A stretch of 64,000 bases of DNA from Escherichia coli (GTDB lineage: Bacteria > Pseudomonadota > Gammaproteobacteria > Enterobacterales > Enterobacteriaceae). Location: the NCBI RefSeq assembly GCF_024223415.1, contig NZ_CP100500.1, one strand, 5' to 3'. Position numbers: made by a program. Of the stretch, positions 33,401-36,400 are shown piece by piece. The first letter of the stretch is position 1. Each line of letters starts with the position of its first letter.

Positions 33401-36400
33401 GTAAGCGTCATTAGTTGATGGCGCACTGTCTACGCGCCAGATAACGAAAACAAGGGCAACCAGCGCCAACGCAACCACTAACAGAGCAGGGAATTTACTG
33501 CGAGGAGCTTTTTTCGGCGTACTTTCCATGAGCGCGTCTCAAATAGATTAGAAAAATGCCAGCCAGAACAGCATGGCGTAGAGAGCAAAAAGGGCGGTAT
33601 AAATAATTCCGACAAATGCCAGATTGATATTTGCCCGCTGAATAATTCGCCTCGTGATGAGCGTCAAAATAAGGCTGGCAATGGCGCAGAAAAACCAGCT
33701 GGGATAATAAGCGCCGATCACCGGGATTGCCGGAGATAATGAGCATCCCGAAACCATGAAGACGGGAATTATCCAGGCTGTTTTTTTGAGTTGCATCGCC
33801 ATGCGAGAGAGAACTGTTGGCATATTAAATACATCCTGTCTGCTGCGAACAATATCTGTAGTGAATATCAATATCCATTGAAGGCGTCAGTATGGCTATT
33901 TTCTCGATGAATAAAAATAGCTTTATTCAGCCACCGCATTCATAACTTATATATTTTATTTATTAATTGGCTGTATATATTTTTAAAATAAATGCTTTTG
34001 GGGGCTTCAGGGCCCCCAAAAGCGAGTGACATTAATTTGGGGTTACGATATTCACCCACAAATCGAAATTATCCAGACAGGCGATAATTTCTTCCAGTTT
34101 CGCGCCATTGCCAATAATTTTGGCTTTCTTCGCTTTTACCAGATCTGCCATTTTGGCTTGTCCGGTCAGCACGGCGTGCAGATCTTCACGGCTGATGTAG
34201 AAAGAGGCGTCGGCTTGCGGTTGCAGTGTTTTACGGTAGTTAAGCACGCTATCGTTCAGCGTCAGGTTGAGGTTATCGCCGTTGCTCATATTGAAGTTCA
34301 GGCTGATATTTTTACCCGCGGCTTTTTCGCTATCGAGGCGAACGGCCATAAAGTCGAACAGCATTTCGACCGACATTCCGCGAATGGTGTCCGGGGAACC
34401 GGTGGTGCCGTGGCTGAACTTATGCACCCCTTCGCGCAGCTCTTTCGCGCCGGTCAGGTAGAAACCGCGCCATGTGGCGGACTCGGCCTGATAGCCCAGC
34501 TGTTCAAAGTTATTCGCTTGCAGATTCTTCGCGACCTGGTCACCCGGGTTGGCGGCAATCACCTGTTTCAGTAGTTCTGCCGACCAGCGGTAATCACCTT
34601 GCTTGTTCGCTTCTTGCGCCAGGTTGATGACACGGGCAGAACCGCCCAGCGCCTGCACGTAACGTTTACCCATCTCCACCTGACCATACGGATGTAGGTT
34701 AGCCGGGTTACCGTCGTAATAGCCAAGATAGAAGTTATACACCGCGCGGGCGTTGTGGCTGACAGAACCGTAATAGCCGCGGCTGGCCCAGTTATTGGCA
34801 AGCGCAGGCGGCAGCTTAATCATGTCGCCGATTTCATTCATGGTGTAGCCCTGGTTCGCCAGGTGCAGGGTCTGGTCGTGAATGTACTTGATAGTATCGC
34901 GATATTTACCAATATAATCATTGATATGCTTATTGCCCCAGACCGGCCAGGTGTGCGGCATAAACAGTACTTCCGCGTCGTTACCCCACATATCCAGCGT
35001 TTCGTTCAGATACTCGGTCCACTTGCTGGTGTCACGGGTTTTCGCGCCGCGCAGAGTGTAGAAGTTGTGCAGGGTATGCGTGGCGTTTTCGGCGGTACAC
35101 AGGGCTTTCAGGGCCGGAATATAGAAGTGCATTTCGGCTGGTGCTTCGCTACCTGGGGTCATCAGGAAGTCAAACTCCAGGCCGTCGATAATCATCTTCT
35201 CGCCAGTTCTGACGATAGTTTTAGTCGGTGCAATAATGCTCGGGTCGCCCGTTGCCAGCGTCACGCCAAGGCCATTACCCACGTTGCCTTGCGCGTTGTG
35301 TGGCAGTAACAGACCGTAAGAGTAGAGCGCACGGCGGCTCATGATGTTACCCGCCAGCACGTTTTCGCTGATGGCTTCGTCCATAAAGCCAGCAGGGGCA
35401 ATCACCTGAACTTTGCCGGATTTAACATCGGCTTCAGAGATAATACCTTTCACGCCACCATAGTGGTCGGTGTGGCTGTGAGTGTAGATAACGGCAACAA
35501 TCGGTTTTTGCGGACGATGCTGGAAGTAAAGGTCAAGTGCGGCTTTTGCGGCAGGTGGCGTCACCAGCGGGTCGATAACAATAATGCCTTTCTCGCCCTC
35601 AACGAACGTAATGTTAGAGATATCCTGGCCGCGCACCTGATACATTTTATCGGTGACTTTGAACAGGCCAGAAATGCCGTTGATCTGCGACTGACGCCAC
35701 AGGCTGGGGTTTACGGTTTCCGGCGCTGCGGCATTAATATCAAATTTGTAATCGTCCGCGCGGTAGTAAACTTTACCGTTCGCATCACGCAGAATACCTT
35801 CATCCAGCAGCGGGGCGATAAATCCACGCTGGGCATCGTCAAAATCCTGACGATCGCTAAACGGTAATGATTTGGCGTAATTCTGATTAACCTGTTGGGT
35901 ATATTGAGTGGCGGCTTTCGCTTCCTCTTTCGCGTTAGCGGTATTTACCATCATGCCGCTGGCGGCAGTTAACGCAATAACAATCCTGCTCAAACGGAAT
36001 AACCGAGAGTTATTCATATAAATCTCCATTTATCATTTATGTCGTAAATATGTAATCCATGCAAAATACGTCATTTAAAGCTGGCGTTATCATAATTGGG
36101 AAATTGCGACTTTAATAAGTGGAAGTGTGAGCGGAACGAACCATTTTATTAGGCATTTGTGCTGAAGATGGAAAAGTACGGCATATTTATTACTATCATC
36201 AATAATGTGACCTGACTTATATTTTTATTATTTATATTACTTTCAGCTTTCACTTCGACAAGAAGTACGCACAATGATTAATCAGATGAATGATGCGGAG
36301 TGTAACCATGAAACCCGTCGTGCTGGTGGTGGATGATGACACGGCTATCTGCGCACTGTTGCAGGACGTGTTAAGTGAACATGTCTTTACGGTTTCAGTC

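Follow-up and report, generated by a model that had tools for sequence, protein, structure and literature searches.

The window analysed here, a stretch of 64,000 nucleotides of Escherichia coli contig NZ_CP100500.1, contains an AT-rich gap between the core gene yjcS and a cluster of sugar-utilisation and signalling genes that occupies the position of the allose genes of K-12. Two questions are raised by this left edge: which bases of the gap belong to yjcS and which to the cluster, and whether the cluster or the allose genes held the locus first.

Gene content and identity of the cluster

Genes were assigned from the annotation of NZ_CP084096.1, a record that is 100% identical to the window, and from Pfam domains:

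34032-36017, minus strand: yjcS (alkyl sulfatase), core gene left of the spacer (annotation of NZ_CP084096.1)
36308-37015, plus strand: lmvR (EDL5428), response regulator of the OmpR/PhoB family (Pfam Response_reg and Trans_reg_C)
37012-43074, minus strand: lmuKAIZYX operon, encoding a PfkB kinase, class II aldolase, D-lyxose isomerase and sugar ABC transporter (Pfam, annotation)
43147-43161, minus strand: LmvR box ATATGACAAATATGA in the lmuX promoter, the sole 12/12 match in the window
43188-45449, plus strand: lmvK (EDL5436), hybrid histidine kinase (Pfam HAMP, HisKA, HATPase_c and Response_reg)
45518-45847, plus strand: yjdP, core gene right of the cluster (annotation)

The cluster (36308-45449) is the already published O-island 167 (OI167) of enterohaemorrhagic strain EDL933, the mannose/lyxose locus lmvR-lmuKAIZYX-lmvK, which was described, and its regulator gene named lmvR, by Yang et al. 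(mBio 2023; PMC10128022). Gene content and order (response regulator, PfkB kinase, class II aldolase, D-lyxose isomerase, SBP, permease, ATPase, hybrid histidine kinase) match OI167, as do the position between yjcS and yjdP and the LmvR box of the lmuX promoter. The LmvR protein (WP_000805929.1) is the same in EDL933, and identity to EDL933 over 36180-38000 is 99.8%. Published OI167 primers map onto the window with 0-1 mismatch, among them the lmvR deletion primer (36276-36328, 0 mismatches) and a primer at the start region of lmvK (43150-43199). Pfam assigns metabolic or signalling domains to each of the eight cluster proteins; the D-lyxose isomerase matches PDB 3KMH/3MPB (E 5.6e-160), and YjcS is 99.8% identical in amino acid sequence to that of K-12. 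The window differs from EDL933 in its non-O157 background, being 100% identical to an O78 strain. The published description of OI167 (PMC10128022) does not give the breakpoints to the base. The lmv locus controls a mannose-sensing two-component system linked to type III secretion and gut colonisation in EHEC. A paper on D-ribulose utilisation (PMC12307932) was considered and set aside because it concerns other loci.

Among 5426 complete E. coli genomes, 3354 have the als genes at this locus, 1565 a decayed als/rpiB remnant (hereafter the short haplotype) and 410 OI167, the carriers being mostly of serotypes O157:H7, O55:H7 and O145:H28 and differing from one another by up to 6%. The als locus of K-12 (alsK-alsE-alsC-alsA-alsB-alsR-rpiB) fills the identical slot between the upstream regions of yjcS and yjdP and likewise encodes a sugar ABC transporter and catabolic enzymes; over the stretches that correspond, LmuX, LmuY and LmuZ share 29-41% identity with the als transporter genes of K-12. 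It differs in having an RpiR-family regulator instead of a two-component system, as well as other enzymes and another gene order.

The spacer between yjcS and lmvR

36017-36015, minus strand: ATG start codon of yjcS
36018-36307: AT-rich divergent spacer between yjcS and lmvR, 290 bp, its AT content matched by just 0.6% of the 290-bp windows
36297-36300, plus strand: GGAG Shine-Dalgarno sequence of lmvR, read from the sequence

The spacer at the left edge is an ordinary, largely known feature. The earlier note on this DNA had described it as 290 bp of AT-rich sequence without an ORF, and this proved exact in its coordinates: GC content is 0.328 (32.8%) compared with 0.535 for the whole window, and no ORF of at least 60 amino acids lies within 36018-36307, mechanical translation giving only a 41-residue ORF with a TTG start (36149-36274, minus strand) and an in-frame upstream ATG at 36290. 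The yjcS start is preceded by a Shine-Dalgarno GGAG at 36027-36024 (minus strand), and the lmvR ATG is at 36308 (plus strand). An Rfam scan of the spacer gave zero matches, and the only tandem repeat detected in it was a 9-bp repeat in 2.2 copies (36220-36239).

By alignment, the spacer falls into three parts:

36018-36179, minus strand: presumed yjcS leader and promoter region, core DNA common to all three E. coli haplotypes
36180-36238, plus strand: AT-rich haplotype-specific stretch, putatively the distal lmvR upstream region here and, in als-type and short-type genomes, a relic that has decayed
36239-36307, plus strand: putative lmvR-proximal promoter and leader, unrelated to K-12

Near-identity to K-12 (97.5%) stops at 36179; the next 59 bp (36180-36238, 20% GC) are 63% identical to K-12, and from 36239 onward alignment and comparison with shuffled sequences revealed no significant similarity to K-12 (megablast end-points 36179 and 36238). 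A breakpoint with K-12-type sequence had been predicted within the spacer, and K-12 homology running on into the cluster, which the prediction named as the observation that would overturn it, was looked for by alignment and not found. The predicted location stands, but the break is not clean, homology being lost in steps; similarly, the spacer does contain the left junction of an accessory cluster, but the cluster is not a simple addition, as it replaces alsK-rpiB (already published).

Identity of 36018-36179 to the K-12, als2 and short haplotypes is 96-97.5%, and that of 36180-36238 to the other haplotypes is 63-71% (z 4.9-6.7; 0 of 5000 shuffles scored as high). The latter stretch is nearly invariant among OI167 carriers and 13-37% diverged in genomes without lmvR. 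The short haplotype is also collinear with the lmvR-proximal region 36252-36300 (z 3.1; 22 of 5000 shuffles, p about 0.004). Retention of the lmvR start and first codons by the short haplotype (ATGCAACCGGTG compared with ATGAAACCCGTC) was considered and rejected, there being no significance beyond about 36300 and z <1 for other genera. The sequences on which the relic argument rests are short (59-110 bp), AT-rich and prone to slippage.

These alignments suggest a composite divergent control region, in which 36018-36179 would be the leader and promoter of yjcS itself, core DNA in every E. coli haplotype, and 36180-36307 the promoter and leader of lmvR, travelling with the OI167 cluster. The stepwise fade of K-12 homology would then arise because als-type genomes keep a decayed AT-rich relic of the lmvR upstream region. 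On this view the spacer holds the left boundary of an allelic replacement that is precise to the gene, not a mobile-element attachment site: in K-12-like genomes alsK-alsE-alsC-alsA-alsB-alsR-rpiB would have taken the place of the DNA that begins in the lmvR start region and runs through the lmvK stop codon. Taken as a whole, this explanation is considered likely.

Candidate control sequences of yjcS and lmvR

Conservation across genera points to the following elements:

36089-36094, minus strand: TATGAT, candidate -10 hexamer of yjcS (cross-genus conservation)
36141-36162, minus strand: GCACAAATGCCTAATAAAATGG, conserved block upstream of yjcS, common to E. coli, E. fergusonii and Salmonella
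36206-36221, plus strand: TGTGA-N6-TTATA, candidate CRP-type site (conservation of TGTGAC)
36260-36275, plus strand: AAGAAG-N4-CACAAT, counterpart of a CAGAAT-N4-CACACT module (conservation in orthologues)

The possibility that the spacer holds promoters for both genes, raised in the earlier note, is consistent with what was found on each side. On the yjcS side, the proximal 160 bp contain blocks kept upstream of yjcS in E. fergusonii and Salmonella, and the candidate -10 region is conserved as TTATGATA in E. coli and Salmonella and as TTATTATA in E. fergusonii; TATGAT is also the best relaxed sigma-70 match on the minus strand (8/12). Genomic SELEX with K-12 suggested sigma-54 binding on the yjcS side (PMC8743547). 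A sigma-54 promoter for yjcS was rejected on finding the GG-N10-GC core absent from both strands of the spacer, here and in K-12.

On the lmvR side, the published P5428-lacZ fusion (PMC10128022), whose primers place its insert at 35845-36349, spans the spacer, and upstream motifs are kept in 17 other Enterobacterales. Upstream of these lmvR orthologues TGTGAC shows little or no variation; in the relics of K-12 and the short haplotype it has become TATGAG. The element that contains it agrees with the CRP consensus at 15 of 22 positions (hand count) and at 8 of the 10 core positions, and its centre would lie at about -57.5 to -60 (hand count from the inferred start) compared with the canonical -61.5. 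Thus, TGTGAC may be regarded as a candidate CRP site rather than an established one; the spacing did not confirm a clean class I geometry. The module at 36260-36275, in which AAGAAG lacks the final T of the conserved CAGAAT, is probably the core promoter or start-site region of lmvR, judging from its conservation: it lies 54 nt from TGTGAC here and 55-56 nt in Citrobacter, Pluralibacter and P. vulneris (hand-counted orthologues). One strain that diverges by 6.1% in the neighbouring genes shows only 2 differences over the 128 bp on the lmvR side of the spacer, which points to constraint there.

A strict sigma-70 scan of the spacer gave 0 matches (1.8 expected), and the best candidates of a relaxed scan scored 8/12 on both strands; the promoter hexamers of lmvR and yjcS are ones that we infer from conservation only, and the resulting model would place the start of lmvR transcription near 36271-36285 and that of yjcS near 36082. 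A strict promoter and terminator scan returned a single weak terminator-like hairpin, inside yjcS. The stretch 36178-36199 (CGGCATATTTATTAC) was considered as a relic of a conserved block upstream of lmvR and rejected, since the block aligns with the upstream region of E. coli fdhF and stays with that gene, at 28932-28945; the fdhF-upstream block may correspond to the FhlA activating sequence of fdhF, which it resembles.

An alternative assignment would make 36180-36238 a fast-evolving part of the core spacer upstream of yjcS, with the cluster edge at 36238/36239 and the order of occupancy beyond determination. In favour of this, alignment of the three haplotypes extends to 36238 and then gives way to complete divergence, the stretch holds the slippage-prone 9-bp tandem repeat, and E. 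fergusonii is also AT-rich at the matching position. Against this, ATGTGACCTGACTTATATTT of the window aligns with GTGTGACCGAGGTTATGTTT upstream of Citrobacter lmvR at the conserved distance from the CAGAAT/CACACT module, the near-invariance of the stretch is confined to genomes with lmvR, and the alignment of the short haplotype goes on past 36238, so that this assignment is considered quite improbable. If the division at 36179 is correct, the DNA specific to lmvR control amounts to only about 128 bp (36180-36307), and knowing which bases serve lmvR and which serve yjcS would be useful in reporter design and regulatory work.

Proposed autoregulation by LmvR

The main role of the spacer has been proposed to be autoregulation of lmvR through an LmvR box, on the basis of EMSA binding and of LmvR-dependent activity of the lacZ fusion; the published footprint is ATATGA-N3-ATATGA (PMC10128022). 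The probe used is located as follows:

35937-36153: published "lmvR promoter" EMSA probe (5428EMSA-F/R), primers mapping with 0 and 1 mismatch

All of this probe consists of K-12-shared DNA beside yjcS; it stays 155 bp or more away from the lmvR ATG and excludes the lmvR-specific control DNA at 36180-36307. A scan of 35937-36350 for the LmvR box gave four matches of at least 9/12, about one being expected, and the best of them, 9/12, is in low-complexity AT-rich DNA; there is no convincing LmvR box in the spacer. The published ChIP-seq table (PMC10128022) contains no peak in the spacer, only one inside the lmvR coding sequence. The pile-up there is roughly 40-fold above the lmuX peak, the signature expected from the plasmid-borne copy of lmvR in that experiment, so that the plasmid is the probable source of an artefactual ChIP signal at lmvR. 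Autoregulation as the main role of the spacer is thus judged unlikely.

The right junction and the search for signs of mobility

45444-45549, plus strand: right junction, common AATTGA (last codon and stop codon) followed by the diverged yjdP upstream region (alignments)

Identity to K-12 across the right junction is 43-60%, rising to at least 90% from 45550. The end of Citrobacter lmvK, AATTGAGATTCCTCCGCTAC, matches the end of K-12 rpiB, AATTGAGATTCATCCACTAC. In the 69-nt right spacer the E. coli haplotypes are 51% identical to each other, and either is 60-65% identical to Citrobacter.

No direct repeats or integrase remnants had been noted at the left edge beforehand, and the wider search agrees: the two cluster junctions share no direct match longer than 7 nt (shuffle mean 7.1), inverted repeats at the junctions are at chance level only, no tRNA gene was found in 25000-50000, and no integrase, recombinase or transposase is annotated between yjcS and yjdP in the identical record NZ_CP084096.1. 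OI167 resembles integrase-mediated, tRNA-associated islands with direct repeats in its patchy distribution among strains (7.6% of genomes) and in a GC content somewhat above that of its surroundings (0.564 compared with 0.535 for the window), yet it is syntenic and equally diverged in Citrobacter. It differs from such islands in lacking tRNA, integrase, transposase and flanking repeat, and its edges fall at a start-codon region on the left and at a stop codon on the right.

Order of occupancy of the locus

In Citrobacter werkmanii and its relatives the lmv genes have the same content and order with the same right neighbours, yjdP-phnP, the full Citrobacter order being nrf-gltP-yjcO-fdhF-lmvR-lmuKAIZYX-lmvK-yjdP-phnPONM. 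Identity reaches about 98% in the lmvK-lmuX control region, where the LmvR box is identical, and the TGTGAC and CAGAAT/CACACT motifs are present upstream of lmvR. In Citrobacter, however, fdhF is the immediate left neighbour, whereas mdtPON-ytcA-yjcS intervenes in E. coli and Salmonella; the Citrobacter spacer, moreover, is not AT-rich. Identity to Citrobacter is 80-97% for the cluster proteins and 80-94% for the flanking proteins. On two grounds OI167 appears to have held the locus first and als-rpiB to have replaced it: the Citrobacter cluster at this position has diverged no further than the genes around it, and decayed remains of sequence from upstream of lmvR persist in K-12, at the left edge of the als locus, and in the remnant haplotype; no relics of als or rpiB were found at either OI167 junction. 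Whereas coordinates, haplotype frequencies, synteny, relics and motif conservation are observations, the order of lmv before als is one that we infer. We somewhat favour lmvR-lmvK as the original occupant beside yjdP-phn in the Escherichia/Citrobacter lineage, with the allose-rpiB genes of K-12 as a later gene-precise replacement; K-12 probably lost the lmv cluster, rather than the source strain of the window having gained a mobile island.

E. fergusonii has als and lacks lmv, and LmvR was not found in the other Escherichia species representatives; for these reasons the persistence of lmv in E. coli would need either a very old polymorphism or re-import.

The published interpretation (PMC10128022) is that OI167 is a horizontally acquired island that entered als-type E. 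coli and displaced the allose genes. The left crossover would then be at 36179/36180, from a related donor that already had yjcS beside lmvR. Import would agree with the restriction of OI167 to 410 of 5426 genomes, mostly of three serotypes, the elevated GC content of the cluster, the sharp steps in identity at 36179 and 45550, the als-type state of E. fergusonii, and flanks that differ from K-12 as much as from Citrobacter. It fits less well with the absence of integrase, tRNA and junction repeat, with the same cluster in the Citrobacter slot, and with cluster genes that resemble outside genomes no more than the flanking core genes do. Moreover, no donor closer than 80% LmvR identity was found among species representatives, differences of up to 6% among carriers argue against a single recent arrival, and relics run one way, lmvR-upstream sequence in als-type genomes without als sequence in OI167. 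Import is possible, though we lean against it, and it would be compatible with lmv as the deeper ancestral occupant if the cluster was re-acquired.

If lmv was the earlier occupant, a fossil lmvR promoter would survive upstream of yjcS in K-12 and in 29% of E. coli genomes, and the last codon and stop codon of K-12 rpiB would formerly have been those of lmvK. The "EHEC-specific island" would then represent an allelic polymorphism of ancient origin, or an ancestral allele that was imported again, not a pathogen-specific acquisition. Synteny and relics point to an old resident locus where the published account has an acquired island, and the same-slot cluster of Citrobacter together with the promoter relics of K-12 at least tempers the idea of pathogen-specific horizontal acquisition. 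The findings at the edges of OI167 involve no new kind of biology; the order of occupancy is the new point, a modest evolutionary twist.

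The yjcS-lmvR spacer is the left edge of O-island 167

The interval 36018-36307 spans exactly the 290 bp from the start codon of yjcS to that of the response-regulator gene to its right:

Start codons bounding the spacer
36017-36015, minus strand: ATG of yjcS, with GGAG at 36027-36024
36308, plus strand: ATG of the regulator gene lmvR, with GGAG at 36297-36300

The spacer is AT-rich and without an ORF, as first described from the sequence: its GC content is 0.328 versus 0.535 for the whole window, a composition as AT-rich as this is reached by only 0.6% of the 290-bp windows, and no ORF of at least 60 amino acids was found in it. 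Rfam families were not found in the spacer, nor tRNA genes over 25 kb (25000-50000), and the sole tandem repeat in the spacer is a 9-bp unit present in 2.2 copies (36220-36239).

The segment 34000-38500 is 100% identical to E. coli O78 strain 3, and the annotation of that strain, Pfam domains and a PDB match identify the eight genes that follow on the right. They encode an OmpR-family regulator and a hybrid histidine kinase, together with a PfkB kinase, a class II aldolase, a sugar ABC transporter and a D-lyxose isomerase, the last being the protein solved as 3KMH/3MPB. This cluster is O-island 167 (OI167) of EHEC EDL933, named lmvR-lmuKAIZYX-lmvK by Yang et al. (mBio 2023, PMC10128022); all four defining features tested are present at the window locus. 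The LmvR protein has the same accession as that of EDL933, and the published primers, which match the window with 0-1 mismatch, place the lmvR ATG at 36308. The window has just one 12/12 match to the published LmvR box, ATATGA-N3-ATATGA (PMC10128022); it lies upstream of lmuX, at 43161-43147. The earlier note's reading of the spacer was correct and the finding is real, yet the boundary belongs to an already published island; what is added here is the base-level anatomy of the spacer, a census of three haplotypes, a critique of the published evidence for autoregulation, and an argument for the 'island' being the older allele. The 3' ends of the convergent genes lmvR (plus strand) and lmuK (minus strand) overlap by 4 bp (37012-37015), and therefore there is no room for a terminator between them and transcripts arriving from each side enter the opposite gene in antisense.

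Three haplotypes and a stepped boundary

The window was compared by megablast with 5426 complete E. coli genomes, in which the slot between yjcS and yjdP has three occupants:

Haplotypes of the yjcS-yjdP slot
als (K-12 type): alsK-alsE-alsC-alsA-alsB-alsR-rpiB, 3354/5426 genomes
short: decayed alsK-terminator and rpiB remnant, 1565/5426 genomes
OI167: lmvR-lmuKAIZYX-lmvK, 410/5426 genomes

OI167 is chromosomal and single-copy in every carrier, and it is spread more widely than 'EHEC-associated', its carriers including strains of types O78 and O169:H41, one named ETEC6335, and isolates from otter, goat and wastewater.

Matches to K-12-like genomes stop at 36179, and those to others at 36238. 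The window is 96-97.5% identical to the other haplotypes over 36018-36179 but 63-71% over 36180-36238, where the sequences are still clearly homologous (z 4.9-6.7, with 0/5000 shuffles as high); beyond 36239, alignment found no relation to K-12 sequence. The left edge is thus stepped, not sharp. Since homology with K-12 ends inside the spacer and was not found to continue into the cluster, the breakpoint that the earlier note had placed here stands. On the right, homology restarts at AATTGA, which forms the last codon and stop both of the window's lmvK and of K-12 rpiB; the following ~100 bp upstream of yjdP are strongly diverged (43-60% identity), and identity is at least 90% again from 45550. 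The exchanged unit thus begins in the lmvR start region and ends with the stop codon of lmvK.

No integrase or transposase was found between yjcS and yjdP, and the longest word common to both junctions is 7 nt, the chance expectation, which agrees with the initial failure to see direct repeats or integrase remnants. Of four tests that define an integrative mobile island, three were negative at this locus, and the fourth, on distribution and composition, pointed neither way. An IS3-family IS1397 transposase gene lies directly to the left of yjcO (~25000-25668), where K-12 has no annotated IS and the next gene leftward is gltP; this element is ~10 kb from the cluster, without any link to it.

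The short-haplotype genome L003 has at 13271-13588 a 105-aa CDS annotated 'RpiB/LacA/LacB family sugar-phosphate isomerase', which starts ~30 bp beyond the common left breakpoint in still lmvR-upstream-like sequence, crosses the alsK-terminator remnant, and continues as rpiB codons 29-53 fused to 107-149, with 53 codons deleted in between. It is probably a chimeric relic, a pseudogene annotated as a gene.

Regulatory features of the spacer

On the yjcS side of the spacer (36018-36179), blocks of sequence are conserved in E. fergusonii and Salmonella:

Conserved blocks on the yjcS side
TTATGATA: contains a candidate -10 element, TATGAT, at 36094-36089
GCACAAATGCCTAATAAAATGG: 36162-36141

Binding of NtrC and sigma-54 holoenzyme to the K-12 yjcS/alsK spacer has been reported from gSELEX (PMC8743547); no GG-N10-GC (sigma-54) element was found in the present spacer. 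The lmvR side (36180-36307) is near-invariant among OI167 carriers: a goat isolate has 2 differences in 128 bp against ~8 expected, despite a 6.1% difference in the adjacent genes, indicating constraint. As to the suggestion that the spacer may contain promoters for both genes, a scan revealed no strong sigma-70 promoter, and the best sigma-70-like candidates score 8/12. The sequence TGTGA-N6-TTATA resembles a CRP site and is a candidate only, its geometry hinging on a mapped start site.

Autoregulation by LmvR has been reported (PMC10128022). The spacer has no match to the LmvR box above 9/12; the published EMSA probe corresponds to 35937-36153, K-12-shared DNA beside yjcS, without the 154 bp nearest lmvR; and the ChIP 'peak' at lmvR is confined to coding sequence (EDL933 5208479-5209126, inside window 36308-37015; PMC10128022 Tables 1 and S4). 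These three observations weaken the case for an LmvR site in the spacer. The ChIP pile-up of ~45,000 reads at lmvR, versus ~1,000 at lmuX (PMC10128022), is consistent with enrichment of the plasmid-borne lmvR copy used in that experiment, not chromosomal promoter binding. Among the genes tabulated as responsive to LmvR overexpression, yjcS does not appear (PMC10128022).

Ancestry of the slot

In a scan of one genome per species, LmvR orthologues of 67-80% identity, and none closer than 80%, were found in Citrobacter, Pluralibacter, Pseudescherichia, Phytobacter, Leclercia, Cedecea, Serratia, Pantoea and others. The Citrobacter gene order is nrf-gltP-yjcO-fdhF-lmvR-lmuKAIZYX-lmvK-yjdP-phnPONM, which puts the cluster in the slot that it has in E. 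coli, where fdhF and lmvR are separated by mdtPON-ytcA-yjcS. Proteins of the window are 80-97% identical to those of Citrobacter within the cluster and 80-94% in the flanks, and therefore the cluster has diverged to the same degree as its neighbours. A TGTGAC element, followed ~55 nt downstream by a CAGAAT-N4-CACACT module, precedes lmvR in 17 other Enterobacterales; the window counterparts, 54 nt apart, are TGTGAC (36206-36211) and AAGAAG-N4-CACAAT (36260-36275). At the position of TGTGAC, the K-12 and short haplotypes have TATGAG, and the short haplotype is collinear with 36252-36300 also (z 3.1, 22/5000 shuffles), followed by the alsK-terminator remnant and rpiB fragments. Neither edge of OI167 showed any trace of als or rpiB. 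On the right, 18/20 positions agree between the end of Citrobacter lmvK with its downstream sequence, AATTGAGATTCCTCCGCTAC, and the end of K-12 rpiB, AATTGAGATTCATCCACTAC. Together, synteny, equal divergence, upstream motifs, relics without reverse relics and the right-hand match favour, with modest confidence and a polarity that is partly inferred, lmv as the first occupant of the slot and als-rpiB as its replacement, which would be of moderate interest if true.

Several observations qualify this polarity. E. fergusonii is als-type; in one Salmonella enterica genome (L094 9661-10000) phnP and yjcS are parted by a single 340-bp AT-rich spacer without yjdP, als or lmv, a fourth state of the slot; and in the 69-nt right spacer the divergence between the two E. 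coli haplotypes (51%) is as large as that of each from Citrobacter (60-65%). The OI167 of today could thus represent a very old polymorphism, or could equally have been re-imported by homologous recombination from an unsampled relative with yjcS adjoining lmvR.

The lmvK-lmuX divergent control region (window 43075-43187; Citrobacter L086 7302-7415), LmvR box included, is ~98% identical between E. coli and Citrobacter, with flanking proteins just 81-94% identical, and is unusually strongly conserved. The sequence upstream of E. coli fdhF (28932-28975) can be aligned to the Citrobacter fdhF-lmvR spacer over its fdhF-proximal half, as far as GTGACGG(T)CC, which lies within the mdtP terminator-like hairpin CCGCGTGA-N6-TCACGCGG, and the counterpart of the lmvR-proximal half lies 7.2 kb off, from ~36200. 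The mdtPON-ytcA-yjcS block, present in Salmonella and absent from Citrobacter, therefore appears to split an ancestral spacer.

E. coli R32_14_1F, from a goat, carries a divergent OI167 variant (L089 3333-4480, 93.9% identical) in which an internal deletion has fused lmuK and lmuA into pseudogenes; the cluster is thus decaying in some carriers. The yjcS allele of some E. coli (window 34032-36017 versus H29/L005) is just 84.8% identical in DNA, a divergence equal to that of the orthologues in E. fergusonii and Salmonella (84-87% in amino acids), which suggests ancient alleles or introgression at the locus.
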